Shown: one piece after another, positions 3,433-60,597 of the stretch
Layout: the number at the start of each line of letters is the position of its first letter
Position numbering within the stretch: position 1 is the stretch's first letter
NCBI GenBank assembly: GCA_963751455.1
Contig: CAVVUN010000012.1
Span: forward strand, 160,001-224,000
DNA length: 64,000 bases
Source of the DNA: Nitrospirota bacterium
GTDB lineage: Bacteria; Nitrospirota; UBA9217
Direction: 5' to 3'
Position numbers and translations under genes: made by a program
The notes under the pieces: model-generated
Told to the model about the DNA's origin: nothing
Databases searched by the model: none
What the model saw: the letters and a program-made list of their open reading frames with translations, nothing else

Positions 3433-6236
3433 ACGAGCAATTTTTCAAATTCCCCGGCCGGAAGAGGTTCGCTGAAAAGGTAGCCCTGCATTTCATCACA
3501 GTCTCTTGAATCCAAAAACGACATCTGATCTTCCGTTTCCACTCCCTCCGCCACCACTTTCAGCTTCAGGATGTGCGCCATCGCGATTATTGCATTGATG
3601 ATCGCCTGATAATCACGGTCCTTGGTCGAATAGGCGATGAAAGACTGGTCGATCTTCAGCTTGTGAATAGGGAGTTTTTTCAAGTAGCTCAATGAAGAAT
3701 AACCCGTCCCGAAGTCATCGATGAAAAAGTGGACTCCCAATGCGTTCAACCTGTTCACGTTGCCGGCGGTGAGCTCCGTATCCTGCATCGCGATTGTCTC
3801 GGTAATCTCGATGCCGAGACATTCCGGACGCAGGTTCGTCTCCTTCAATATATCCGAAATCATTTCAGCCAGGCGCGGCTGCTGAAACTGACGGGCTGAA
3901 AGATTGGTCGTTATATATTGCGGCGCATGTCCGGCCGCCTCCCATGCCTTGAGCTGTTCGCACGCGGTTCGCAGCACCCACTGGTCTATCTGGATTATCA
4001 ATCCGATTTCTTCCGCAAGGGGGACAAACTGCATCGGGCTGAGAAGTCCCATTTCCGGATGGTTCCAGCGGACCAGCGCCTCCACGCCGGTCAGCTTCCG
4101 CGTCTTTATGTTCTGCTGCGGCTGATAATATACGACAAGCTCGCCTCGCTCAACGGCCTGGCGAAGCCTGTTCTCGAACCGTATCCGATCGAGCGTCCTG
4201 ATGTTCAAAGCGACGTTGAAGAACTGGTGATTATCTCTTCCCTGGTCCTTTGCGTAATGCAGCGCAATATCCGCGTTCTTGATCAGGGCCTCCGCGCTTT
4301 CACCGTCATCCGGGTAAAGGCTGATTCCGACGCTGGCAGTCAAGCGGAGCTCATGGTGATTAATACGGAAAGGCTTTTTAACGGCTTCCATCAGTTTTTC
4401 CGATATTCTGGAAGCATCTTGAGGATTGACAAGGAGGGGCAGCAGTATAAGGAATTCGTCGCCTCCGATCCGGGCGATTGTATCGAATTCCCGCACACAG
4501 CTCTTCAAACGGACTGCGACATCCTGTATCAGCTTATCGCCTGCCGCATGTCCGAGCGAATCATTGACGTTCTTGAACTGGTCGATATCCAGGGACAGGA
4601 CTGCAAGCTTCTTCCGGACGCGCTGTGTCTGGAGTATTTCATGATTGAGAATATCCAGAAACCGGGCCTTGTTGGATAGACCGGTCAGGAGATCATGGTA
4701 TGCCTGGTATTTAATGGTCTCCTCCGCCTGTTTGCGTTCCGATATATCAAGTATCACCCCGTCGATATAGAGAGGTGCGCCGTCTGCGTCGCGCACCGGC
4801 CTCCCCCGCTCGACAAAATATTTGATGCCCCCCTGTTTGTGCTGGAGCCTGTATTCGACTTCGAAAGGTCTGTCGCTGTCGATCGCTCGTGTCACTTCGC
4901 CGGTCACCCTCTCCTTATCATCACGAAGAATAAAAGGATCGATGGAGCACACCTCGCCTTTTTCCAGTTCCCCGATCGAATAACCGGTCATCTGCTCAAC
5001 CATCTTGTTGAAAAACTGCATCCTGTTTTGTTCCCTCAGATATAGACGGTAGACTATCCCCGGCAGATTCTCTGCGAGTGTCCGGTATGACCCTACGCTC
5101 TCTCTCAGTTCCGCTGTGCGCTCGTCCACCCTCAGCTCAAGCTCATCACGCGCCCTCTCGAGTTTCCCGGTTGCGTACTCGACTTCTTCGGTAAGGCGCT
5201 GAAAGCTCTTATCGAGAATCTCGAGCTGGTCGCCCTTGCTGAACGCCGCGGAAAGACCGCCCAGCTTCTTTTCCGAGAAGTCCGCTATGCGTCTTGTAAG
5301 GCGCTGAACCCGGCGGGTAATCCCCGACATGACGGCCGAGAAGATAACGATGAACAGCAGCGTCAATCCGATCCTGTTCCTTCGCCCCGCGGCGAGGACC
5401 TCCGTGCCCAGGGCCTCATACTCTTTCTTCGATATAAGGGAGGCGAACTCGACAAGAAGGTCGGATGATCCGATATCGAAAAAAGATTTTCCCATAACAA
5501 GATAGTTGCGTTCCGCCTCGCTGAAGATCGTGCCGCCGGGAAGGACGTCGGGCCTGTTGCTTGCGATTACTTTCGCTTCGGACATAAGAACTACGATGCC
5601 CTTTGCCCCGGCAAACCCCTGTGAGTCGGCAAGAAAATCGTCATCCAGGGGGCTTGCAAACATGAGTATGGCCTTTATGCGCCTGCCCTCACCCCCTCCC
5701 TGTTCAAGAATCGGCCCTGCCGTGATGACGAATGGCGTGCCGTCGATACTGGTCATGAGGCTCTGGTTGGAGCTCAACGCCCTCAGGAGACTACCGGGTT
5801 TAAGAAGCGGCTGCGGGAGAGGTTTGGCAATACCCTGATAGACTTCCCGTACGTTTCCGTCTTCGTCCATGAGTATGGCGTAGGAGACGCGGACAAGCCG
5901 CCGCAGTACTGACGGAGCGGGCATCCAGGGGGGGAGCTCATTGTTATAATATTTCATCCTTTTTGCCGCTTTCAGGTCTCTGCCCGACAGGTAATCGGTA
6001 AAGCGTCTCTGCGATATGGTGACCTCCACCGCAGCATTGTAGGCATTGACGTAGTTGTCGAAGCGGACCCTGGCCTCCTGTGCCTGGACAGCCAGCTGCC
6101 TGTTTAGCTGGGCCTCAAAGATGCTCTGGAGTCTCTTGTTTTGAGTGTATTCGAGCAGTCCCCAGGAGAGAAGCGCCGCAGAAACGGTGAGCAGGATAAT
6201 CTTCGGGGTGAGAGGGATTCGCCTGAGAATAGTCAT
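3429..6236 (-). CDS. Membrane-bound PAS-GGDEF-EAL diguanylate cyclase/phosphodiesterase
   Basis: Two TM segments around a periplasmic domain, PAS/PAC, then GGDEF, EALVRW and DDFGTGYSSL motifs. Confidence 0.92.
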   Translation of the reverse strand: MTILRRIPLTPKIILLTVSAALLSWGLLEYTQNKRLQSIFEAQLNRQLAVQAQEARVRFDNYVNAYNAAVEVTISQRRFTDYLSGRDLKAAKRMKYYNNELPPWMPAPSVLRRLVRVSYAILMDEDGNVREVYQGIAKPLPQPLLKPGSLLRALSSNQSLMTSIDGTPFVITAGPILEQGGGEGRRIKAILMFASPLDDDFLADSQGFAGAKGIVVLMSEAKVIASNRPDVLPGGTIFSEAERNYLVMGKSFFDIGSSDLLVEFASLISKKEYEALGTEVLAAGRRNRIGLTLLFIVIFSAVMSGITRRVQRLTRRIADFSEKKLGGLSAAFSKGDQLEILDKSFQRLTEEVEYATGKLERARDELELRVDERTAELRESVGSYRTLAENLPGIVYRLYLREQNRMQFFNKMVEQMTGYSIGELEKGEVCSIDPFILRDDKERVTGEVTRAIDSDRPFEVEYRLQHKQGGIKYFVERGRPVRDADGAPLYIDGVILDISERKQAEETIKYQAYHDLLTGLSNKARFLDILNHEILQTQRVRKKLAVLSLDIDQFKNVNDSLGHAAGDKLIQDVAVRLKSCVREFDTIARIGGDEFLILLPLLVNPQDASRISEKLMEAVKKPFRINHHELRLTASVGISLYPDDGESAEALIKNADIALHYAKDQGRDNHQFFNVALNIRTLDRIRFENRLRQAVERGELVVYYQPQQNIKTRKLTGVEALVRWNHPEMGLLSPMQFVPLAEEIGLIIQIDQWVLRTACEQLKAWEAAGHAPQYITTNLSARQFQQPRLAEMISDILKETNLRPECLGIEITETIAMQDTELTAGNVNRLNALGVHFFIDDFGTGYSSLSYLKKLPIHKLKIDQSFIAYSTKDRDYQAIINAIIAMAHILKLKVVAEGVETEDQMSFLDSRDCDEMQGYLFSEPLPAGEFEKLLV

Positions 6237-28895: not shown

Positions 28896-29025
28896 GTGGA
28901 CAGAGAAAAGCGGGCCGTTCATCTGAACGGCCCGCTTTTGTTCGGTCTCCCCGGGCCTGAACAGGATACGTTAGTGCCAGGAAAAGATCGTCGTTTCTCA
29001 TTTTACTGACTTTTTTTCTCTTATA

Positions 29026-29055
29026 TTCGCAAAAAAAAGCGGAGAGTGGTATATT
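29026..29055 (+). promoter_or_regulatory. Sigma70-type promoter of ncRNA copy A
   Basis: TTCGCA-18 nt-TATATT with extended TG; the same boxes occur at 37360-37389. Confidence 0.65.
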
Positions 29056-29061
29056 AATTTC

Positions 29062-29363
29062 AAGGCGCTGCCAGACCAACACTGGAAAGTGTAAACGTGT
29101 TTTATCCTCCGTTGAGGGCGTGAAGCGACTGACTTGGCGTGATCGATTAATCGGAAAGCAGTGGCGCCAAAAGCGCTATTAACTGCCGGTTCAAAGATTA
29201 CGGAAAGTTGGAAGTCAAAAGCCCCGCGACCGAAGGATGTACGGTGAAGCCAGCGGGAACGGTTCTGAATTTGCGAAAGCAAAGACGGGAGTGTGAACGC
29301 GAGGAGCACTGAATATTCCAAGGTTCAACAGCAGGAATAAGATGCGGGTCAAAGCAACGCCTT
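29062..29363 (+). ncRNA. Putative large structured ncRNA, copy A (family not recognised)
   Basis: 5'/3' ends pair (AAGGCGCTGC / GCAACGCCTT), many internal helices and GNRA-type loops, paralogous to 37396-37702 with covariation. Confidence 0.75.
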
Positions 29364-29381
29364 CTGACTCATTCCCCATTC

Positions 29382-29413
29382 AACCGCCGAGGTCCAACCT
29401 TGGCGGTTTTTTT
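29382..29413 (+). terminator. Intrinsic terminator
   Basis: AACCGCCGAGG-loop-CCTTGGCGGTT followed by a T-run. Confidence 0.85.
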
Positions 29414-29545
29414 ATTCACAAATAATTGCACGCGTAATTGCTGACTGGTGTATTGAAAGGTGAGATAATTTCAGTAGAGCGATCCATCATCCGTGAGCGC
29501 GCGCTGCACGTCGTCGAAACATGCTGTGCCGGGATCGAAGAAGCA

Positions 29546-31492
29546 ATGATGAAGCGGAAAATGAAGAATAACGGGATTCAATTTACCGGGATGCGATCCG
29601 GAAAGAAATTGACCCCTCTCCTGATTGCGCTGCTTTACACGGCCGTCGGGGGGATTTGGATCCTCACCTCCGACAGCATCGTATTCATGATAAGCAGGGA
29701 CCCGGACATCATTACCCGCCTTCAGACCTACAAAGGCTGGTTCTATGTCGCGATAACCGGCTCGATGCTCTTTTGGCTGATTCACCGCTATGGTAATAAA
29801 CTTATGCGGGCCATGGACATATTGAGCGAGAGCGAAGAGCGGTACCGCATTGTTGTAGAGACGGCGCTTGATGCCATCATTACCATTAACGCAGAAAGCA
29901 CGATAGTATTTGCCAATCCTGCCGTAGAAAGGATTCTCGGTTATTCAAACGCTGAAATCGCCGGCCGGAAACTGGATATGCTCATGCCGGAGCGGTTCCG
30001 GCAAAGACACTATGACGGCATTAAACGGTATAGAGAAACAGGGAAAAGACGAGTGTCCTGGCAAAATGTGGAATTTCCGGGATTGCATAAGAGCGGCAGG
30101 GAGATACCTCTCGAGATCTCTTTTGGTGAATTCATCAAAAACCGCGAGCTATTTTTCACCGGTTTTGTGCGCGACCTCAGTGACCGAAAACAAGCCGAAG
30201 AAACGATTAAATATCAGATGTACCACGACCTTCTGACCGGCTTGCCGAACAGGGCACTGTTCATGGACCTTCTGAATCATGAAATAACCAAGGTTCAATT
30301 GACACGGAAGAAACTCGCCGTGTGTTTTTTGGATCTAGACCAGTTTAAGAACGTCAATGATTCGCTGGGACATGCTGCCGGCGATGCTCTGATAAAGGAT
30401 GTCGCAGCCAGGTTAAAGAGCAGTTTGCGCGATTTCGACGCGGTCGCGCGGATAGGAGGCGACGAATTTACGATACTGCTGCCCTTTCTGAACCATTCGG
30501 CGGACGCGTCCAGAATCGCGGATACCATAATGGGGGCCTTTAAAAAACCTTTTATCATCGACGGCCATGAGCTCAGTTTAACCGCGAGCATGGGCATCAG
30601 CCTTTACCCTGAAGACGGCGAAGGCGCGGAGTCCATTGTTAAAAATGCGGATATTGCTTTGCATTATGCAAAGCACCTGGGCCGGAATAATTACCAGTTT
30701 TTCAATACCGCTTTGAACATCAGGACGCTTGAGCGGATTATTCTGGAAAACAGGCTGCGTCAGGCGGTGGAGCGCGGAGAGCTGGTTGTGTATTATCAGC
30801 CGCAAATGGACATAACGACGCGGCGGATAATCGGCGCGGAGGCGCTCGTTCGATGGAACCACCCGGACTTGGGACTGCTGCAGCCGATGCAGTTCATCCC
30901 TATTGCCGAAGAAATAGGATCCATCATTCAAATTGACCAGTGGGTCATGCGTACCGCATGCAGGCAACTCAAGGTCTGGGAGGCAGCCGGACACGGACCG
31001 CAGCATATAACGATCAATCTTTCAGCCCGGCAGTTTCAGCAGCCGGGGCTGCCCGAATTGATCTCAGCGGTACTGGAAGAGACGAAACTCCGCCCGGAAT
31101 GCCTCGGAATCGAGATCACCGAGACGCTTGCCATGCAGGATACGGAATTGACCTCGCGTAACCTGCTCAAGTTGAACTCCATGGGCGTCAGGCTTCTCAT
31201 CGATGACTTCGGCACCGGATATTCTTCATTGAGCTACTTGAAGAAACTGCCTATTCATAAACTCAAGATCGACAAGTCCTTTATCACTGACCTTACCAGG
31301 GACCGCGATTATCAGGCGATCATCAATGCGATAATCGCGATGGCGCACATTCTGAAGATGAAAGTGGTTGCAGAGGGCGTCGAAACGGAAGATCAGATGT
31401 CATACCTGCATTCAAAAGACTGCGATGAAATGCAGGGATACCTTTTCAGCAAGCCTGTCCCTGCCGGGGAATTCGAAAAATTACTTGCGTGA
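29546..31492 (+). CDS. TM-PAS-GGDEF-EAL protein
   Basis: Two TM segments, FixL-like haem PAS (LMPERFRQRH), GGDEF, EALVRW, DDFGTG. Start codon uncertain. Confidence 0.92.
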   Translation: MMKRKMKNNGIQFTGMRSGKKLTPLLIALLYTAVGGIWILTSDSIVFMISRDPDIITRLQTYKGWFYVAITGSMLFWLIHRYGNKLMRAMDILSESEERYRIVVETALDAIITINAESTIVFANPAVERILGYSNAEIAGRKLDMLMPERFRQRHYDGIKRYRETGKRRVSWQNVEFPGLHKSGREIPLEISFGEFIKNRELFFTGFVRDLSDRKQAEETIKYQMYHDLLTGLPNRALFMDLLNHEITKVQLTRKKLAVCFLDLDQFKNVNDSLGHAAGDALIKDVAARLKSSLRDFDAVARIGGDEFTILLPFLNHSADASRIADTIMGAFKKPFIIDGHELSLTASMGISLYPEDGEGAESIVKNADIALHYAKHLGRNNYQFFNTALNIRTLERIILENRLRQAVERGELVVYYQPQMDITTRRIIGAEALVRWNHPDLGLLQPMQFIPIAEEIGSIIQIDQWVMRTACRQLKVWEAAGHGPQHITINLSARQFQQPGLPELISAVLEETKLRPECLGIEITETLAMQDTELTSRNLLKLNSMGVRLLIDDFGTGYSSLSYLKKLPIHKLKIDKSFITDLTRDRDYQAIINAIIAMAHILKMKVVAEGVETEDQMSYLHSKDCDEMQGYLFSKPVPAGEFEKLLA

Positions 31493-31633
31493 ATGCCGGG
31501 AAAAATAATACTTCAATTTGATTCTACAGCCTTCTTTTTTTACTAAGGAGTATATCTTATCATTAATTTTCTACTCGTTCCCTCTTGCTTCTACTTTTTT
31601 TCTTACTTTTTCGTTCTTACTTCTCTATTTTTT

Positions 31634-31649
31634 TGTGATTTCAGTCACA
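31634..31649. promoter_or_regulatory. Crp/Fnr-family binding site
   Basis: Perfect TGTGA-N6-TCACA upstream of the PilZ gene. Confidence 0.65.
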
Positions 31650-31716
31650 GTTAAATAATACTAAAGAATTATAAGTAATCAGGGAGTAAAATTACCAAGG
31701 GGGAAATGAATTTTAC

Positions 31717-32424
31717 ATGAAGAAGATCATTATCGCGGACCGAATCTGGCAGGGAGTAGGTTTCGAAGTCTATCCGGACAGCGAGGATATCCAGGTATTC
31801 AAAGCCTATTCAAATGAAGATGTGCTGAATCTTCACCGGGAAAACAAGGCGGACCTGATCATCACTGAACTGTATGGAACCGGCATGAGCACGGCCCAGC
31901 TCTGCTCTGTGATCAGAGAAACCCCGGATCTTAAGTACGTTTCTGTAATCGTATGCCGCAAGGACAATGTTATTGAAATTGCTCAAAGCCAAAAGTGCAG
32001 GGCCAACGTGGTTTTGACACTGCCGCTCCGGCCCGGCGTTCTGCGCCGTGCCGTGCAGCAGCTTCTGACGATTCCGGTAAGGGCCTTTTACCGTATTCCG
32101 TTCAGCGCCCGCTGCTCAAAGCTGTCTGCGAGTGGTTCCTTCCAATGCGAGGCAGAGAATATCAGTATCACCGGCATACTTATTCAAGCAAAAGCGGATC
32201 TGAACCAGGGCGACAGAATCAATTTTACACTGAGCCTGCCCTATGTGGGATCTTTTGAAACTCAGGCAGAGGTGATCAGAACGGTCAAGACCGCGGGTAA
32301 TCGGCGCCAATATGGTCTCCGCTTTTCCCGGCTCGAACCCACGGCGCGGTACGCGATTAAGACGATCGTTGACTTGATAACATTTAAGCTGCCTCAGAGA
32401 TTTCCAGGGAGTGTATTCAGATAA
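31717..32424 (+). CDS. Degenerate receiver + PilZ domain protein
   Basis: REC-like N-terminus; RAFYR (RxxxR), NISITG and YGLRF PilZ motifs. Confidence 0.8.
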   Translation: MKKIIIADRIWQGVGFEVYPDSEDIQVFKAYSNEDVLNLHRENKADLIITELYGTGMSTAQLCSVIRETPDLKYVSVIVCRKDNVIEIAQSQKCRANVVLTLPLRPGVLRRAVQQLLTIPVRAFYRIPFSARCSKLSASGSFQCEAENISITGILIQAKADLNQGDRINFTLSLPYVGSFETQAEVIRTVKTAGNRRQYGLRFSRLEPTARYAIKTIVDLITFKLPQRFPGSVFR

Positions 32425-32544
32425 GAAAGCTACACAGCGCGTGGTCACGGGAGTAACCGGCTTGCCTGGAAATCGTCGATGCCTATCTCTTCAGCTATGT
32501 GCATGGGCCAGCCGGGCTCCGTGAATTAAGGGCGGCACATGACA

Positions 32545-33372
32545 CTAAGATCTGCCGGACCTGATCGTCGTACCCGCGCCAGGGACAGTCCCTGTACCCG
32601 GGGTAGTCCCTGTACCCGGAGTGGGTTGACCGCCTGGCGTTGGCTCTGTTCTCCCGCAGGCGGCATCCTCTGCAGCACGGGCCACGGCGAGAGCGCCTTC
32701 CAGGGCCGCAACCGCGGCTTCCGCTGCCTGCAGGCCGGCTAACGCACTTGCATAGGCCGCCTCAGCAACTGCCGCCGCAACCGCAGCTGCGGCAGCCGCG
32801 AGGACAGCGGCAAGCAATCCCGGCAGGTCCCAAATCGCAACAGCGCCGATGGCGGCAATCGCGGCATTCCTTGCGGCTCGGGCATTCAGCATGATGCGGC
32901 GGCGCCGTTCCACCCGTTCCCGCTGCGCGTCCCGTTCCGCGCGCGCTCGAGCAAGCGCGGCTTCGGCCGCCTCACGGGCCGCGGTTGCAGCCTTACAGCT
33001 CAGGTTGCCCACGTCGATATCAAGGCCCTGTCCTATCTGCCCGGTAACGCCTGACACACCTCCAGCCGCTGCAGGCGCCTCCTCGCAACCAGAAAGGCAG
33101 ATTGCCAGGGTGCCGACTCCGGCCGCGGCCGCACCCACGATGGCGCCGATTATGGCGATGACGATACCTAAAACAGTGCCGAGACCGCATCCTACCAGAG
33201 CAGCGATGATCGCGGAAAGACCGCCGGTTGCAACGGCTATGGGCGCATCAATTATTTCAGCGGCGCCCACTCCGATAAGACAGGCAATCACCGCGCCGGC
33301 AAGAAATCCGATCCCCGCACCGAACAGCGCGGCAATAATCGCGTTAATGATGCATCGTGTTCGACAATCCAT
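32545..33372 (-). CDS. Ala/Gly-rich multi-helix membrane protein with TPGTGT tail repeats
   Basis: Long ORF with RBS GAGG; hydrophobic hairpins, coiled coil and 18-bp tandem repeats. Confidence 0.65.
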   Translation of the reverse strand: MDCRTRCIINAIIAALFGAGIGFLAGAVIACLIGVGAAEIIDAPIAVATGGLSAIIAALVGCGLGTVLGIVIAIIGAIVGAAAAGVGTLAICLSGCEEAPAAAGGVSGVTGQIGQGLDIDVGNLSCKAATAAREAAEAALARARAERDAQRERVERRRRIMLNARAARNAAIAAIGAVAIWDLPGLLAAVLAAAAAAVAAAVAEAAYASALAGLQAAEAAVAALEGALAVARAAEDAACGRTEPTPGGQPTPGTGTTPGTGTVPGAGTTIRSGRS

Positions 33373-33434
33373 GGCTTCACCTCGCGAAAAATTATTTATC
33401 GTTGCTAGCGCATTCTAGCGTCCGCGCCGGCGGC

Positions 33435-34331
33435 TTACGGGCGGCGCGCACATGCCGGCTCTTCCGGCGCGGCCCGGCAGAGCGCGCTCAAAACATCCTC
33501 TTCACTTGCGGTTTCGCGTTCGCAACTGATGCTCGCAATGTCTTCGTGGACGGCAACGGAGTCGCCGGGATTGAGGTGTTCGAACCTCTGCCCTATGGGC
33601 CGGTTCAACGTTACATTAATTGTATTTCGTCCGACGTTTTTGAGCTCCCGTGCGTGAGCGCCGTAGCACGGCTGGTCCACGGTACAGTCGAGGAAAGATT
33701 GCCGCAGCCGGCCTGAAAACTCCCACCCGGAACGGAACTGAATCTGAGCCGCCACAAGATCGGAGGGCCCACCGCCCGGCGCCGGTACCAGGAAATGATG
33801 GGTCGTAACCTGTTCCTCCGGCATGTTCGGCTGCTCCTCGAGGGGGCCCGATGCCCGGCGGTATCGAAGAACGCAAAGGTCGGTGTCTCCTACTGCTCCA
33901 CGGGCGGCAAAACTCTTTCGTTCGCTCCAGAACGCAAGCTCGTCTCCGTTTCGACGGTACAAAACTTTGAATCGGACATCGACAACCTGCTTGTCGAACA
34001 GGAGATAATCGCGGCCGATCATGAATTTCGCGTCGAATGGCGACCTGAGGGGCAATGAAACGGACGTCTCCGCTTCCGGTGAGGTCAGGAGAATGTTTCC
34101 ACTTCTCCAGAAAAGCGCGGGAGCATGCTCGAAGGTCGGTCGAACGCCGAACTCGGCTTCAATTCGTGTCACCTCTGTCTCATCCGGATCGATAACGGCA
34201 AAGACATGGCCTATTTGAGAATCGGCCTCCAGGGGACCTATCTTCGGTACTGTCTGGTGACAGCCGCAGAACTGAATCATGCAGGCCACGAGAAGGAGCT
34301 GGGAAAAGAGAGCGGCGCGATCGGTCATCAT
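33435..34331 (-). CDS. Hypothetical exported or lipoprotein
   Basis: 298-aa ORF, signal-like N-terminus with Cys, RBS AGGAG. Confidence 0.6.
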   Translation of the reverse strand: MMTDRAALFSQLLLVACMIQFCGCHQTVPKIGPLEADSQIGHVFAVIDPDETEVTRIEAEFGVRPTFEHAPALFWRSGNILLTSPEAETSVSLPLRSPFDAKFMIGRDYLLFDKQVVDVRFKVLYRRNGDELAFWSERKSFAARGAVGDTDLCVLRYRRASGPLEEQPNMPEEQVTTHHFLVPAPGGGPSDLVAAQIQFRSGWEFSGRLRQSFLDCTVDQPCYGAHARELKNVGRNTINVTLNRPIGQRFEHLNPGDSVAVHEDIASISCERETASEEDVLSALCRAAPEEPACARRP

Positions 34332-34686
34332 TGTTGGAATCTCCTGTTTGAACGCTTAACCGTCGGGTATAGTACTTTTGGATTTCCAGCAGTCGCATTA
34401 AAGAGATCTATTAATAGTATAATGCGGTCGGGTTAAAAAGTGAGACGTTGCGGATGTTATTGCTGTTTGATATATTGAGGGCGTTCCTTCGAATTATTAT
34501 TTAGAAGCGGCCCTCACTCCGGATTGCTTCCGTACCGCGCAACGGTCCTGTGGAGGCGCTCCTCTTCCACGAGGAGGACGAGGAGACAGGCGAACTATGT
34601 TTTGGCGTACGCGCGGCCAATATGCCCTGCTGTTGCCGTCACGCGGGCAAAGACAAATCGCACATAATCAGGCTGTCGTTTTCGAT

Positions 34687-35637
34687 TCAGGCCGCGCACT
34701 TTCGGGCAGCGACCCGGCGCTCAAGTGCAATGCGGTCCCATTTGCCGAGATCGGCAGCGGCTTCATAGGTGCTCTGCAGGAATTCGAGGAGCATGTCGTC
34801 CGGGGCTTTCGCGTTGCGGACGATGTCGTACGGCAGAATGAATTCCCGGAGATCGCTGCTGTAGAACGCCTCGCCCGGTTGGACTCGTGCTGTGGAAAAT
34901 CCGGCCGGCTGAGGATAGGCATAGGAATAAAACGCGGGATATGGAACAGGACCTCCGCCCGGCCAGAACCCGCAGCTGCTTACTTCGTGCGAATACGCCT
35001 CCCGCGTGACCCAGTCCGGCAGGTGCGGAATGCCGCCCGGATGTTCAGGTGCTTTTCGTCCCGAAAATCTCGTAACTGCGAGATCAGGGCCGCCCCAGAA
35101 AAAGTGAACCGGGCTGCACTTGCCGATGAACCGTGCGCGAAATTCCTTGAACACACGGTCGGCCTGTACGAGGATCCGCCAGAACCGGTTGGCATACCCG
35201 GGATCATAGGCCCAATGGATTTCGTCGCTGTCAAACGGAATAGGGTCCGCAACCTCGTTCGGTACTTTACATATACGCACCTGCAAGCCGAGTTTTTCCA
35301 TGGCCTCCATGAGCCGCGCATAGAAAGCCGACACCGGCTGCGGTTCGAGCGCAACCCGGCCAACACCGCCGTCGCTCGTCTGGACGGTGAGATGATGCCC
35401 GATGAAGTCGAAATCGATTTGGAAAGTCCGCCTGCCGTAAGGGATAGGCGAAGTAGTGAGTCCCCTGGCCGTGACATACAGCGTTACAGACCAGGAGTGA
35501 TTGGCCCACGGACTTTGAATTAGCCGGATCTTGCCGACAATCTGGGTCCACATATGCAAAGTCGCGTAGGTCTCGCTCCAGGCCTGGAGCGGCAGGCCCG
35601 GCCATGTTTCAAACTGTGAAGCATTCCGTATATTCAT
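34687..35637 (-). CDS. DUF5996-family protein
   Basis: TLHMWTQIVGK, SPVHFFWG, EAYSHEVSSCGFWPG and AFYSYAYP motifs. Confidence 0.85.
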   Translation of the reverse strand: MNIRNASQFETWPGLPLQAWSETYATLHMWTQIVGKIRLIQSPWANHSWSVTLYVTARGLTTSPIPYGRRTFQIDFDFIGHHLTVQTSDGGVGRVALEPQPVSAFYARLMEAMEKLGLQVRICKVPNEVADPIPFDSDEIHWAYDPGYANRFWRILVQADRVFKEFRARFIGKCSPVHFFWGGPDLAVTRFSGRKAPEHPGGIPHLPDWVTREAYSHEVSSCGFWPGGGPVPYPAFYSYAYPQPAGFSTARVQPGEAFYSSDLREFILPYDIVRNAKAPDDMLLEFLQSTYEAAADLGKWDRIALERRVAARKCAA

Positions 35638-35836
35638 TTTTCCCCTGAAAACCCCTCACCCCAGCCCTCTCCCACTTATAGTCCAAGTGTATCTCGTATT
35701 TGTTGTGGTCTTTGAGCATGAGTGTACGTGATGATGATACTTAAATCGAATTGACATCGCACTGGCGAAATATTTAATATGATGGGAGAAATCTGCGAGG
35801 ACCGGACTTTCTCCTCGTTGATGAAGGAGATGCAAT

Positions 35837-36121
35837 GTGAAAAGTGTAATCAAGAACAGGACAACGCTGATATGCGGGCACCTCGACCAGATCCGCGCGG
35901 TCCAGCCCCATACCATGGAAGGCTGCGAGGATTGCCTGAAGCTGGGGAGCCGGTGGGTCCATCTCCGGCTCTGTCTCTCGTGCGGCCACGTGGGATGCTG
36001 CGATTCTTCGCCAAACCGCCATGCGCGCGGGCATGCCCACGCCTCAGGACATCCGATTGCTCAATCCTTTGAACCGGGCGAGGACTGGCGCTGGTGCTTC
36101 TTCGATGAGATTGAGGTGTGA
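35837..36121 (+). CDS. UBP-type zinc finger protein
   Basis: CEDC..WVHLRLCLSCGHVGCCDSSPNRHA..EPGEDWRWC. Confidence 0.92.
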   Translation: MKSVIKNRTTLICGHLDQIRAVQPHTMEGCEDCLKLGSRWVHLRLCLSCGHVGCCDSSPNRHARGHAHASGHPIAQSFEPGEDWRWCFFDEIEV

Positions 36122-36479
36122 GCCGAGGTTGCATTTTGTTCGGGCGTCATGCGCTCGAAATCCGGTACTGAATTTAAGCCGACGTTCGGCTGAACGCCGG
36201 CTTTTTTATCGAAGTTAGGTCTTGGTTATATCCAGATGGGTGAGCCCGCACGGGATAAAGATTGACATCGAAAGGATGTAGGGATGTTGACGACTGCAAA
36301 AATATTGACGAGAAAATTATGGATGACCCTATAGCTTCAACTCAGTTTTGAAGGAAACTCTGTGCAAACTTAAAACCCGGGAGCCTCTTCTTTGCACTTG
36401 ATGATGCATGCCAATGAAAGAAGCGGCCCCTTTGATTTCTATTCTTTTTCCTGTTCTTTACGCCTTTCCCAACGACACT

Positions 36480-37070
36480 TTAGAACACAATTGCACGACA
36501 GTTATCTGTCTGCGGCCAGCTGGTTTGGCTGACATTCCTCTTGGCCGGGAATAGGGCGGGGTCCCCTGGCGCGGGGTCGTACAACAGTTGATATGAGATG
36601 GTATTGGCTTCCGACGCGCCATTGGCCGCACCGGTCGTGACCACGGCAACCGCGAGTCCGTTAATGCCTACCGTCTTGCCTGCGGGTATGAGAGTCGGAA
36701 CGGCCGTGAAAACACCGAGATCCTGCGCAAAGGTCAAGTTTGTTCTGACGAAGGCTTTAGGACTGCTGCCGGCTACAAAAAGTCGGGCTGGGTCAAAGTT
36801 AAAGTTCTTGCTCGAGTTCGTATTTCTAATCTCGACGATTCGAAAGACTACATATGCCTGGTTCGGACCCACACTGACCACGTTGATCGGACCGGCACCA
36901 CCCGGGCCGGACGTCTGCTGGTATCCGTTGCAAGCCCCCACCTGGTCAAAAACGATGCTTGCGGAATCCTCGATCAGAGGGCCTCCTCCCGGCTTGGGAG
37001 GACAACCGGTAAGAACCAGTCCCGCCACGACTGAAAGAAAAAGTGCACTTAATAGTCTTTGCCGAAGCAT
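36480..37070 (-). CDS. Hypothetical lipoprotein
   Basis: Lipobox LTGC; beta-rich mature part. Confidence 0.7.
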   Translation of the reverse strand: MLRQRLLSALFLSVVAGLVLTGCPPKPGGGPLIEDSASIVFDQVGACNGYQQTSGPGGAGPINVVSVGPNQAYVVFRIVEIRNTNSSKNFNFDPARLFVAGSSPKAFVRTNLTFAQDLGVFTAVPTLIPAGKTVGINGLAVAVVTTGAANGASEANTISYQLLYDPAPGDPALFPAKRNVSQTSWPQTDNCRAIVF

Positions 37071-37395
37071 AGAGCGCCTCCTTTACTGCGGAATTGAAAG
37101 CTATTAAGTTCATATAACTATATTTATGTATTGTCAACCTGGGTAAGTTGAAAGCGGCCTGCGGACGTCGGAGTGACATCATACACTCCCCTTATTCCTA
37201 TAATTATAAGAAATGATCAAGCCTGGCCCCCGAACGGCTTTCGGGAAAGAATAAAATCTAACATTAGTCCTGACTCTCATCAGCATCGCTCGTAAAGAGC
37301 GACGTTAGTGCGAGGAAAAGATTGCTGTTTCTCATTTTTTTTACTTTTTTTCACTTATATTCGCAAAAAATAGCGGAGGGTGGTATATTCATTTT

Positions 37396-37702
37396 AAGGC
37401 GCTGCCAGACCAACACTGAAAAGTGTAAACGCATTTATTCTCCGTTGAGGGCCTGAAAGCGACTGACTTGGCGCGATCAAAAACCGGAAAGCCATGACGC
37501 CAACAGCGTTATAAAACTACCGGTTCAAAGATTACGAGAGGTCGGGAAAGCCGAAAGCTCCTCGACCAAAGGACGTGCGGTGAAGAAGGCGTAAGTTCTT
37601 CCGGGTTTGTGAAAGCAAAAACAGGAGGGTGAACGCCAGGAGCACTGCATGTTCCAAGGTTGTTCAACGGACGCAATAAGATGCGGGTCAAAGCAACGCC
37701 TT
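37396..37702 (+). ncRNA. Putative large structured ncRNA, copy B
   Basis: Paralogue of 29062-29363, with its own promoter (37360-37389) and terminator. Confidence 0.75.
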
Positions 37703-37720
37703 TTCTTCATACTCCAATGC

Positions 37721-37752
37721 AAAACCGCCAGGAATATCCTGGCGGTTTTTTT
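37721..37752. terminator. Bidirectional intrinsic terminator
   Basis: AAAACCGCCAGGA-loop-TCCTGGCGGTTTTTT between the ncRNA and the convergent adhesin gene. Confidence 0.85.
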
Positions 37753-37823
37753 ATTTTCTGTGTCAAAAAACTCGTTCCGGAATTCAAGACCGGTTCATGA
37801 GATGTCGTGCCGGCATCGCATCA

Positions 37824-40109: not shown

Positions 40110-40504
40110 GGTGGACCCTCCGTTTGATTTATTGGGTTTGGATGATAAGGCTCAATACATAAAGTCAAAGTGCAATCTAAAGGTACCTATTTTCCGTATC
40201 GGGAAGCAAAGTGAAGAGGATATTTTTAAGACAATAGCCTGATTTGTTCTTTAATTCCTTGGTATAGATATATTGTAATATCATAAAATAGTTTTGTCAT
40301 ATTTCTACGAAGAAGAACGCAATAAAAAAAGCATGCGATTAACTGGTGAAAGGAAAGCGAACAATAAATAGCGATTGTTGTGAGGAATTAGTTCGATATG
40401 TGGGTCTTATCTTGCCCTTATGGTCTTTCAGGGAGAAGGATAGGTGAAGTTACCGCGGACACAACGGAGAGAAACTAAAATGGTAACTACTCAGGTCATT
40501 TTTT

Positions 40505-40591
40505 ATCCGCAGATTACGCAGATTTCGCAGATAAAAACAAAACCAGAATTCCGGTTTTAGAATCTGCGTCAATCTGCGAAATCTGCGGATA
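40505..40591. repeat. CGCAGAT-type triplet inverted repeat
   Basis: ATCCGCAGATTACGCAGATTTCGCAGAT...ATCTGCGTCAATCTGCGAAATCTGCGGAT. Confidence 0.8.
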
Positions 40592-40774
40592 GAAGGGCTT
40601 TTTCTTAGATTTGTCTTAATGCTGTTCTGAAAAGAAGCTGAATAGTTACCTAAAATGGTACCTTTCAAGATTACTGCATGTTCCATAAAAAAACCGCCAG
40701 GGTTAATCCCGGCGGTTTTTTCTTTCATTTCATTTCGATACGCCCCTTTTCGTTCCAGTCCAGGGCAAGTCAAT

Positions 40775-43356: not shown

Positions 43357-44520
43357 ATGAAAAAAAGCCCGCGCGACTTTCTTCAGAAAGCCTGGATGAC
43401 CCTGTCCGAGGCATCTTCATTCTTCCGGCGGAACAACGACCTGACCGCCTCCTCCTCGCTCGCTTTCTCGGCCACCCTTGCGCTCATCCCCGCCCTGTTC
43501 CTGCTTACGTTCCTGCTCGGCGCAATCGTCGGATCGTCCGCCCGGGCGCTCGCGCAAACGCGTGAGTTCATTACCCAGCTGATTCCCGCGTACAGCCAGG
43601 TGATCCTGAAAGAAGTGGACTTTATCGCCCGCCATAAGCGGGCCATCGGCATGCTGAACCTGTTCGTATTGTTCTGGAGCATTACTCCGCTGGTCGCCGA
43701 TATGCGGGTCTCCGTGGGCGCAATCTTCCGGAAAAGACCGACCAGGCCCTTTCTTCTTGAGAAGCTCTTCGACGCCGCCATCAGCATGGTCTTCCTGGTG
43801 GGGCTCGCTGCGGTTGCCGTCGCTGGCGTGGCGTTCACGATCATAAAACGGATCCAGCCGCTGCGGCAGATGCCCGGCAGCCTCAACGATGTTGCCTTCT
43901 TCGTAGTGGTCATTGGCGTTATCTGCGCCCTCTACTTCACCTTCTCGAAGCGCGCACGGTTCTTCCATCTGCTCGCGGGTGCTCTTGCTGCCTCCCTGCT
44001 GTGGTTTGCGCTCCGCCCGGCCTTTCACCTGTTTCTCACTTTTAACCCGGGTTATGGGTTCGCTTTTGGTTCGTTCAAATCGCTGTTCGTCATCTTCATC
44101 TGGATCTACATCTCGATGGCCCTGTTTCTGTTCGGCGCCGAGATCGCGGCAAGCCTCGGGAGGAACGAGTCGGCCAGCCTCAAGGGTCTTCCGGAAGACA
44201 GCACTGTTCCCCCCGGCGTTCTTTATCGCCGCATTGTCCGTTTCGAAAAAGGGAGCGTTGTTTTCAAGGAGGGGGATCCCGGAAGCGGGATGTTCTGTGT
44301 GCTCAAGGGGAGCGTATCAATCCGCAAAGGCGGGACGGAGATCGAGGTGGTTCCTCAAGGCAAGAGCTTTGGCAGCGTGTCATCCGTCCCGCCGTCTGTT
44401 CATCACGTGACCGCCCTGGCGCTCGAGGACCTGGAGCTGGAACATCTTCAGGGCCAAGTCTTTTTCGTTGCATCATCATCTGTGATGACACAGGAAGCAA
44501 TTTCAAGGAATAAGACTTGA
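43357..44520 (+). CDS. YihY/BrkB-family membrane protein with partial cNMP-binding domain
   Basis: YGFAFGSF and LFLFGAEI, then VFKEGDPGSGMFCVLKGSV. The C-terminus is replaced by a repeat element. Confidence 0.85.
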   Translation: MKKSPRDFLQKAWMTLSEASSFFRRNNDLTASSSLAFSATLALIPALFLLTFLLGAIVGSSARALAQTREFITQLIPAYSQVILKEVDFIARHKRAIGMLNLFVLFWSITPLVADMRVSVGAIFRKRPTRPFLLEKLFDAAISMVFLVGLAAVAVAGVAFTIIKRIQPLRQMPGSLNDVAFFVVVIGVICALYFTFSKRARFFHLLAGALAASLLWFALRPAFHLFLTFNPGYGFAFGSFKSLFVIFIWIYISMALFLFGAEIAASLGRNESASLKGLPEDSTVPPGVLYRRIVRFEKGSVVFKEGDPGSGMFCVLKGSVSIRKGGTEIEVVPQGKSFGSVSSVPPSVHHVTALALEDLELEHLQGQVFFVASSSVMTQEAISRNKT

Positions 44521-44525
44521 CACCC
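44449..44525. repeat. ~75-bp GGGTCAAGTC...GACTTGACCC hairpin element; copies at 53392-53465 and 55164-55237
   Basis: Three near-identical copies with terminal IRs. Confidence 0.8.
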
Positions 44526-53375: not shown

Positions 53376-53563
53376 TCTTCAGAGCATCTTCAGGGTCAAG
53401 TCTTTTTCGTTGCATCATCATCGTTGATGACACCGGAGTCGATTTCAAGGAGAAAGACTTGACCCTGTGCCTCTGCTCCGTTCGCCCTCGGCTTGTCGAA
53501 GGACAAACGGAGGATTTTTTAACAGCGGCAAACGAGTGACCGATATTTTATTTCAATTATCTT

Positions 53564-54987: not shown

Positions 54988-55237
54988 GAGATCGCGGCGA
55001 GCCTCGGTAAGAACGAGTCGGCCAGCCTCAAGATCCTTCCGGAAGACAATACTGCTCCGCCCGGAGTTCCCGATCGCCGCATTGTCCGTTTCGAAAAAGG
55101 AAGCGTTGTTTTCAAGGAGGGGGATCCCGGAAGCGGGATGTTCTGTGTGCTCAGAACATCTTCAGGGCCAAGTCTTTTTCGTTGCATCATCATCTGTGAT
55201 GACACCGGAGTCGATTTCAAAGAGAAACACTTGACCC
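54988..55237 (+). pseudogene. Degenerate duplicate of the yihY 3' region
   Basis: Near-identical to 44140-44307 followed by 44441-44521, with an internal deletion. Confidence 0.85.
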
Positions 55238-55416
55238 TATTTATTGCGAAGAGGATGCATGAAGGGACGAAGATAATCCAGAGTTGTTTTTTCGGATTTC
55301 AGTATAAACGCCGATAAAAATGCCGCCATGTTAAATGTAAGGATCTGACCATATGATGTTTGCTCAAATAAAGAGCACGCTCCTGATCGGAGCGGGCTCT
55401 TTTGTTATAACCCTCA

Positions 55417-57904: not shown

Positions 57905-58732
57905 ATGGACAGGAAAGACTATTACAAGATACTGGGCGTAAGTGAGACTGCAGCGCCCGACGAAATAAAAAAAAGCTATCGCAATCTTGCATTCCGCTAT
58001 CATCCTGATAAAAATCCGGGCAGTCAGGAGCTGATGAAGGAGATCAATGAAGCGTATGCCGTCCTATCCAACCCGGAGAAGAGGCGGGACTATGATCATC
58101 TGAGGCAGAGTTTCGGCTCCACAGCGAGGGACCGGTTCAGACAGACCCATACGGACGAGGACATCTTCCGGAACTCGGACATCAACCAGATCTTTGAAGA
58201 ATTCAGCAGGATTTTCGGATTCAGCAGACCTGAAGATATCTTCAGCGGCAATAATTTTTACGGTCGCAATTACAGAGAGTTCAAATTCAAAGGCCCCGGC
58301 GTTTCCGGCAGGGGCTTCTTTTTTTTCGGACCACTGGGAAATGCCTATCGTTCCGATAGAGGGACCGCGCAAAAGGGTTCATTGGCCTCTAAAGTCATGC
58401 TGAAGGGACTCGAAATGTTCCAGAAGATGGCGGCAAAGAGGCTGGGCATAGTCCTGCCGGAAAAAGGGAAAAACCTTGGCGATTCACTCGCGGTAACGCC
58501 GGAGGAGGCTTCCTCCGGAGGAAAGGTCAAGTACATCCTCAATCAGCCCGGTAAATCCAGGGAAATCCTCATCACCGTTCCGCCTGGGATCGGAGAGGGG
58601 CAGAAGATCAAACTCAAAGGTCTGGGCGAAGAGGGAAAGCACGGGGGTGAAACAGGCGATCTTTTTCTCAAGGTCAGGATTCGCCGGCCCTTTTTTGAAT
58701 TCTGGAGAAAGCGGAGCGAACGGAGACGATAA
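57905..58732 (+). CDS. DnaJ-domain protein (CbpA-like)
   Basis: [21 protein letters not shown] and C-terminal KLKGLG..GDL. Confidence 0.92.
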
Positions 58733-58839
58733 AGCTTCTCACCCTGAGAATCGAGCTCCCTGCAACTTATGAAAAGTCAAACATTATAGACCCTGCTGTT
58801 CTTGCGGCACAAGATGCTGTTGTTGTTATTGAAGCGCCC

Positions 58840-60448: not shown

Positions 60449-60597
60449 AACTCAGGGGTCTGGGAGAAGAGGGAAAGCCCGGGGTGAACAGGCGATCGTT
60501 CTCTCAAGGTCCAATTCGCCTGTTTTTTTTGAATGCTGGAGAAAGCGGAGCGAACGGATACGAGAAAGCTTCTCACCCCTGAGAATCGAGCTCCCTG
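60449..60597 (+). pseudogene. Degenerate duplicate of the dnaJ-like gene 3' end
   Basis: Direct repeat of 58611-58762. Confidence 0.85.

Follow-up and report, generated by a model that had tools for sequence, protein, structure and literature searches.

An apparently new large structured RNA gene of the Nitrospirota class UBA9217 and its extra copies

A 64,000-nucleotide (nt) stretch from a Nitrospirota bacterium of the UBA9217 lineage (GenBank assembly GCA_963751455.1, contig CAVVUN010000012.1, positions 160,001 to 224,000; hereafter the window) carries two diverged copies of a structured RNA gene. Sequence analysis confirmed that both loci are extra copies of a class-wide RNA gene of about 305 nt, and the family is real and apparently a new large bacterial non-coding RNA (ncRNA), of which a prior unlisted mention is possible. 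We tentatively propose, with a probability of about 45%, that its product is a stable, trans-acting RNA which would bind protein as a scaffold or titrator and would be neither an enzyme nor a cis-regulator. This proposal is based on near-universal retention, the copy-number pattern, a boxA leader, compensatory structure, a near-invariant terminal helix (P1), a U tract and the lack of a common neighbour gene.

The RNA gene and its distribution

BLAST retrieved relatives in 7 of 36 UBA9217 family genomes, and a profile built from 50 copies found the RNA in 63 of 64 UBA9217 genomes, including all 32 of high quality and a genome of 1.7 Mb; the sole genome without a match is 68% complete. The RNA is retained as steadily as 6S RNA (60 of the 64 genomes). 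One match was found in 41 genomes, two in 11, three in 7, four in 2 and five in 2, some of the extra matches being partial. After the exclusion of 17 partial matches, 91 distinct full-length copies were analyzed, the RNA ranging from 266 to 335 nt. The sequence-only reading of the window had reported two copies, and both are real, but the host genome holds five in total plus a 3' remnant: the two of the window, two tandem copies at trpE and a short form of 250 nt, which are 61-83% identical. The core copy of the host, divergent from trpE and preceded by a boxA (contig C12:350590-351300), lies on a long branch and is followed by a diverged tandem copy devoid of the side hairpin. The remnant, with its terminator, is located 10 kb beyond the window (contig C12:234260-234400).

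Scanning one genome per species with a pattern returned 94 stretches, 44 of them with a profile match. Among the 80 stretches with labels listed, 33 of the 34 profile-matching loci are labelled Nitrospirota, and the last one, labelled Betaproteobacteria, gives the same matches as a UBA9217 family genome. The 50 pattern matches without profile match were rejected as chance matches, 44 of them being inside open reading frames (ORFs). In a metagenome scan based on boxA and the 5' end, one of 120 stretches, among those listed, was a member. Searches outside the family covered samples and relied on sequence profiles, patterns and a covariance model of the 3' part, and remote homologues sharing only the structure may exist. 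Within these samples, the first profile found the RNA in none of 123 other Nitrospirota genomes, and a wider profile gave partial matches only (at most 21 bits), of which 20 were examined without any Rfam match and 7 of 7 checked were inside ORFs. The covariance model gave only short matches outside UBA9217 (at most 24 bits), with a single 51-nt match in 151 genomes of a second phylum, that of a Desulfobulbaceae record. No RNA match was found at the trpE loci of 25 Nitrospirota genomes from other families, in three pattern scans of viral contigs or, by blastn, in plasmid and phage collections. Where UBA9217 has the core RNA, divergent from trpE, some of the other families of Nitrospirota have two tRNA-like genes (loci L215, L221 and L223). 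The class is described as aquifer-rich and as possessing Wood-Ljungdahl and dsrAB genes (PMC11033732).

The two window copies are homologous over positions 28968-29416 and 37302-37755 (80.8% identity over 459 nt), on the + strand and at the places first noted, as borne out by sequence, promoter, terminator and folding. At the 5' edge of the duplicated unit, about position -80, each possesses a conserved 19-nt element (28970..28988 in copy 1, 37304..37322 in copy 2, both +), a possible regulator site whose genome-wide matches are restricted to these two copies; a related motif occupies the same place in other copies of the dispersed clade to which they belong (clade B, see below). A sigma70-type promoter of the form TTCGCA-18-TG-TATATT, with a weak -35 and an extended -10, follows at 29026..29055 and 37360..37389 (+), and P1 begins 8 nt past the -10, the distance being 6-9 nt in most clade-B copies. 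The P1-closed RNA bodies, delimited by folding and family alignments, extend over 29064..29361 (298 nt, +) and 37398..37700 (303 nt, +) with 83% identity, and each is followed by an intrinsic hairpin and U-tract terminator (29382..29412 and 37721..37751, +). Folding z-scores are -6.33 and -5.75 for copies 1 and 2, respectively, with none of 100 shuffles being as good. These features support a structured RNA gene that stands alone and carries promoter and terminator signals of its own. As anticipated, no conserved ORF was found: because indels show no triplet bias (123 of 1028 are multiples of 3) and no Pfam match exists for the 107-residue ORF that overlies copy 1 on the minus strand, the family was judged not to be coding, and a protein-coding gene was ruled out.

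The RNA had been described as belonging to no recognized family, and its absence from Rfam supports this view. No Rfam 15 model matched the window at its gathering score, the matches with E<=10 being all sub-threshold and mostly located on a terminator or promoter. Canonical genes for RNase P, transfer-messenger RNA (tmRNA) and the signal recognition particle (SRP) RNA are present elsewhere in the genome and none lies at the window loci, where no tRNA or tmRNA was found. 6S RNA, taken as an unbranched hairpin of about 180 nt with a central bubble, was ruled out, the family RNA being 266-335 nt long and branched and the RF00013 match lying elsewhere. A ribosomal RNA (rRNA) fragment or 5S derivative was likewise ruled out, since the host 16S, 23S and 5S are full length and the longest shared word is 11 nt. 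The raiA motif, defined by P1, P3-P6 and two pseudoknots (PMC12968392), was dismissed on the basis of the missing Rfam match and of the lack of a supported pseudoknot. Four further candidates were also rejected: a CsrB/RsmZ sponge (7.8 GGA motifs for 7.0 expected, and CsrA not found in the 100%-complete host genome), a CrcZ-type Hfq sponge (ARN tracts not enriched), a bacterial Y RNA (Ro60, the TROVE protein, in 1 of 64 genomes) and a miniature inverted-repeat transposable element (MITE) or retro-element (a unit extending past the inverted repeat, and a fixed core locus). No description of the family was found in a literature search whose scope left out subscription journals and the supplementary motif tables of ncRNA screens and preprints.

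Fold and covariation

The consensus fold is composed of P1 (8-9 base pairs, bp), a second short helix, a small side hairpin (P2), a trunk and a three-way junction which carries two long arms interrupted by A-rich internal loops; the RNA is thus predicted to be a closed, Y-shaped rod. In copy 1 (+ strand), P1 pairs 29064-29071 with 29354-29361, P2 spans 29079-29092 and is followed by the trunk, arm A extends over about 29116-29224 and arm B over about 29228-29325, with a GAAA tip at 29270-29283. The 5' strand of P1 is identical in 85 of the 91 copies, and near-invariant positions are almost confined to this helix. In some copies, either the distal half of arm A or the P2 hairpin is missing.

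Most of the helices initially proposed are mostly paired in 20 clade-B sequences, namely P1, GACC/GGTC, ACACT/AGTGT, CGYRTTT/AAGATGCG, CCGTTGA/TCAAC, CGYGATC/GATTACG, AAYCGG/CCGGTT and TTTGY/GCAAA (one row of the helix table, P12, was mis-anchored and excluded). The CTTGG/CCAAG helix, by contrast, lacks family-wide support, one of its pairs forming in 2 of 20 sequences and the others in 13-20, and its 3' strand is better accommodated by GACC/GGTT (19-20 of 20 paired). Both compensatory changes that had been pointed out, GTGGCGC/GCGCTAT versus ATGACGC/GCGTTAT and GGATGT/ATATTCC versus GGACGT/ATGTTCC, are visible in the sequence.

When 40 core copies are aligned by sequence only, 87.8% of the cells pair (81.7% after shuffling, 29-44% when slid), and changes on both sides occur in 54 of 86 pairs (32.4 after shuffling). 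Double compensatory branch events amount to 87.1 in the core copies (61 sequences; 8.8+-3.1 expected) and to 13.4 in clade B (21 sequences; 4.5+-2.0 expected), values reached in 0 of 150 simulations in each case. These tree-aware counts are our own and do not come from R-scape. Mutual information and per-pair G-tests were dominated by phylogeny. Of the covariation that had been anticipated among homologues, the total of compensatory events exceeds expectation while single pairs do not reach significance. The + strand folds better in 26 of the 31 copies tested, G-U exceeds A-C at paired columns, and G-U wobbles and compensatory changes are distributed along the whole arms. Collectively, tree-aware covariation supports the Y-shaped fold.

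The ribozyme-like, multi-junction complexity suggested by the sequence-only reading was not retained, because the near-invariant positions of the 91 copies are almost all in the terminal helix and not in a junction core; besides the trunk and its one small side hairpin, the consensus contains a single three-way junction, which bears two long arms. A ribozyme, or the catalytic RNA of a ribonucleoprotein (RNP) enzyme, is very unlikely: its size, a class-wide retention like that of an essential gene and an rRNA-type leader would fit such a role, but the near-invariant bases are misplaced for it, interior identity between paralogues is only 61-83%, RNase P is present in canonical form and no similarity to Rfam ribozymes was found.

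Another possibility, which we regard as unlikely though deserving consideration, is an RNA-only architectural molecule of the raiA, ROOL, GOLLD or OLE kind, which would fold or oligomerize through its A-rich internal and apical loops, proteins being secondary. Half of the unpaired bases are A, GNRA-type tips are common, and a conserved loop of arm A is complementary over 7 bp to a junction strand (72-97% paired in core copies). However, this loop-junction helix lacks clear covariation and is in competition with two other helices that are supported; a pseudoknotted core was not found, and the distal half of arm A or P2 is absent from some copies. Large RNAs of this kind are also stand-alone, structured orphan RNAs, and in raiA the closing P1 is likewise the most conserved peripheral part (PMC12968392; PMC12286853). 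In contrast, the UBA9217 RNA is longer than raiA (about 305 versus about 200 nt), has neither an Rfam match nor a supported pseudoknot core, and differs from the whole group by its Y shape, its 1-5 copies, its restriction to one Nitrospirota class and its boxA leader.

Core and dispersed copies

A tree of 73 copies is split into 46 and 27 sequences with a support of 100/100. The core copies are divergent from trpE: 58 of the 91 full-length copies lie within 310 nt of this gene, and 4 more, tandem or nearby extras, within 1.5 kb. In another genome, three tandem copies stand beside trpE, each with a promoter-like sequence, and a fourth is about 7 kb away (L037, L040; G001:C90). Core leaders are mostly 45-70 nt long, and a boxA-like motif was found in all 58 first trpE-divergent copies and in 1.5% of shuffled leaders, the pattern having been derived from the same leaders in which it was counted. 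A U tract directly follows P1 in 55 of the 58 core copies. Among the other copies, 22 of 28 have a separate hairpin terminator and 5 of 28 match the boxA pattern; in four of these the motif lies upstream of the promoter, and the fifth is a core copy whose flank is short.

In the core copies, boxA lies between the promoter and the RNA; NusB is encoded by the host genome, whose two rRNA operons both have the boxA motif after the promoter. A boxA variant was also observed just upstream of the SRP RNA gene (contig C3:410493). The motif of the RNA leader matches the B. subtilis boxA that binds NusB (PMC13753749). In rRNA operons, promoter, boxA and a helix joining distant ends follow one another as they do here, and boxA and end-joining helices have a role there (PMC10250234; PMC13753749). 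The comparison ends with the product, which is not rRNA, the full-length 16S, 23S and 5S being elsewhere, and with the window copies, devoid of boxA. By analogy, we infer that the core RNA is made like rRNA, by Nus antitermination.

The location of the core copies raises the question of whether the RNA could act in cis or as an antisense regulator of trpE, or be an Hfq-dependent base-pairing regulator. Hfq in 63 of 64 genomes, the U tail and the 58 of 91 copies divergent from trpE would be compatible with this, but nearly all of the RNA is paired, it is oriented away from trpE and does not overlap it, the neighbours of dispersed copies are unrelated, and a search for antisense matches to rRNA gave none above 10 nt, mRNA targets being outside its scope. 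Such a regulator is therefore a poor candidate, and a highly improbable one.

The window copies belong to the second, dispersed clade (clade B), lack a boxA leader and have their own terminator. In the genomes with both kinds of copies (8 of 9, one being removed by the filter), the likeness across genera is greater among dispersed than among core copies (0.82 versus 0.69, in 21 of 21 pairs), which suggests horizontal spread or stronger constraint. They form a unit of about 500 bp which includes 80-100 bp upstream and the terminator and must consequently have been copied at the DNA level; they share no neighbour gene, and two clade-B copies are near transposase genes. The initial proposal of a mobile RNA gene thus needs to be restricted: the family has a fixed core copy beside trpE, and horizontal spread, as DNA that includes the promoter, seems to have occurred only in the clade of the window copies.

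In this context, the view that the gene is a non-autonomous, selfish DNA element, with a terminal inverted repeat mimicking an RNA stem, was considered and is largely refuted. It would account for the terminal repeat, the greater likeness of clade-B copies across genera and the two nearby transposase genes, but not for the fixed single core locus, for the G-U wobbles and compensatory changes along the arms, or for a copied unit which extends 80-100 bp past the repeat and takes in promoter and terminator; by eye, no target-site duplication was seen at the window copies.

Function and a candidate protein partner

Large structured bacterial RNAs are rare, and those of known function (RNase P, SRP, tmRNA, 6S and introns) do central jobs. 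One to several copies per genome is a pattern typical of sponge RNAs: CsrB/RsmZ and CrcZ/CrcY are multi-copy, trans-acting and under different promoters, and CrcZ titrates Hfq. The UBA9217 RNA as proposed here would share these properties, but it has no repeated single-stranded motif, GGA and ARN not being enriched, and CsrA was not found in the host. RNAs bound by Sm or Sm-like (LSm) proteins and Y RNAs are structured, with paired ends and a U tail. The UBA9217 RNA likewise has paired ends and a U tail, in genomes which also encode a predicted heteromeric Sm-fold ring, and differs in being bacterial and in the near absence of Ro60 (1 of 64 genomes).

This putative ring stems from the extra Hfq-like genes of these bacteria. 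At least three Hfq profile matches are present in 55 of the 64 UBA9217 genomes, corresponding to an ordinary hfq and a two-gene operon which was conserved in 13 of 13 loci examined. In the host, the operon (contig C1:435397-436292; L414:3898-4790) is upstream of genes whose translations resemble lnt and prfB. Its first gene encodes a 160-residue protein with two predicted Sm folds (predicted local distance difference test, pLDDT, of 88-95 in both domains), of which sequence searches recognize the second only, and its second gene a 134-residue protein with one Hfq-like domain and a conserved C-terminal segment. A 2+2 complex is predicted to form a closed six-domain ring with a score of 0.86 (best control, 0.00). 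Of 157 solved complexes, 116 attain the mark, compared with 2 of 215 mismatched pairs; contacts agree by at least 90% between runs, with a partner pLDDT of at least 87. Resemblance to solved Hfq hexamers may account for this result, which carries no information on RNA. The host thus combines an RNA with a 3' U tail after a helix and a predicted Sm-fold ring, which makes the ring a candidate partner.

A mechanism can be sketched on this basis. The core copy would be transcribed by the Nus antitermination complex, like rRNA, which would protect it from Rho and help its ends to pair. The terminal helix and the 3' U tail would then form a protein docking site, for which the extra Hfq-like ring (two tandem-Sm and two single-Sm proteins) is the best candidate and ordinary Hfq the alternative, while the long arms would attract other factors or keep them sequestered. 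The dose would be raised or tuned by additional copies with different promoters, including both window copies. The more specific version, in which a dedicated heteromeric Sm/Hfq ring with three different Sm domains is loaded with the 305-nt RNA, itself made by means of the rRNA antitermination machinery, to give a housekeeping, small-RNP-like particle, is speculative and in our view doubtful.

Several observations weigh against this proposal. In the per-pair tree-aware G-test, no base pair reached E<0.05, and broken pairs are as frequent in clade B as in the null (141.7 versus 145.6), so window-type copies may be under weaker constraint. The boxA count suffers from the circularity mentioned above, and the window copies have no boxA downstream of their promoter, hence the rRNA-type transcription step does not apply to them. 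The link between Hfq and the RNA is co-occurrence only, found while testing another idea, and the hfq-like genes do not lie next to the RNA genes. Families f3 (7 of 9 genomes), f6 (3 of 3) and f7 (1 of 1) also have three Hfq matches, and no convincing RNA match was found in them; the extra operon may therefore occur in families in which the RNA was not found, these three being known from match counts. Finally, runs of (ARN)3, the motif of the Hfq distal face, are not enriched (0.25 versus 0.41 per copy).

Besides a scaffold or titrator, an RNA polymerase binder of the 6S, Ms1 or CoRP kind, which would store or retune the polymerase, can be envisioned by analogy. Such RNAs share with ours a closed duplex, a stand-alone gene, lineage specificity and possible paralogues, and one study reports that lineage-specific examples escape sequence searches (PMC11077062). 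The UBA9217 RNA differs by its three-way junction and by the lack of a large central bubble in its consensus. Moreover, canonical 6S coexists in 60 of 64 genomes, and the same study found one abundant polymerase-binding RNA type per species (PMC11077062), which makes this function distinctly unlikely.

The surroundings of the window copies are ordinary. Copy 1 is flanked by doxX and a GGDEF-EAL gene, unrelated to the neighbours of copy 2, an unknown gene and an Ig-repeat gene. Within the window, the GGDEF-EAL coding region is duplicated in inverted orientation (3436-4739 and 30182-31485, 77% identity), and a 94-bp palindromic intergenic repeat (40501-40594) resembles a repetitive extragenic palindromic (REP) element or MITE, some of its 178 BLAST matches in the genome being identical. 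A low-GC stretch (46-52 kb, 38-43% GC) contains or adjoins duplicated gene remnants and an imperfect palindrome of ~85 bp in three copies (44140-44521, 53379-53466 and 54988-55238), and a 150-bp repeat (58611-58762 and 60449-60597) has six genome matches. At another locus (L344:1533-1800), an unrelated, strongly folded stretch (z -8.2), closed at both ends and containing a short hydrophobic ORF, resembles a type I toxin-antitoxin mRNA and has no Rfam match.

This RNA is retained about as steadily as 6S in a class of sulphate-reducing bacteria that live in the subsurface and are uncultured, and is nevertheless absent from Rfam. It offers two handles that the majority of orphan RNAs do not have, an rRNA-type boxA leader and an unusual candidate partner, the predicted heteromeric Hfq ring, whose operon merits study in its own right. 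Since the RNA and the proteins are small enough for in vitro production, their structure and binding are open to tests that do not require culture of the host. If a dedicated particle does exist, it would represent a bacterial parallel to the eukaryotic Sm/LSm RNPs and would be re-tuned by horizontally spreading paralogous RNAs.

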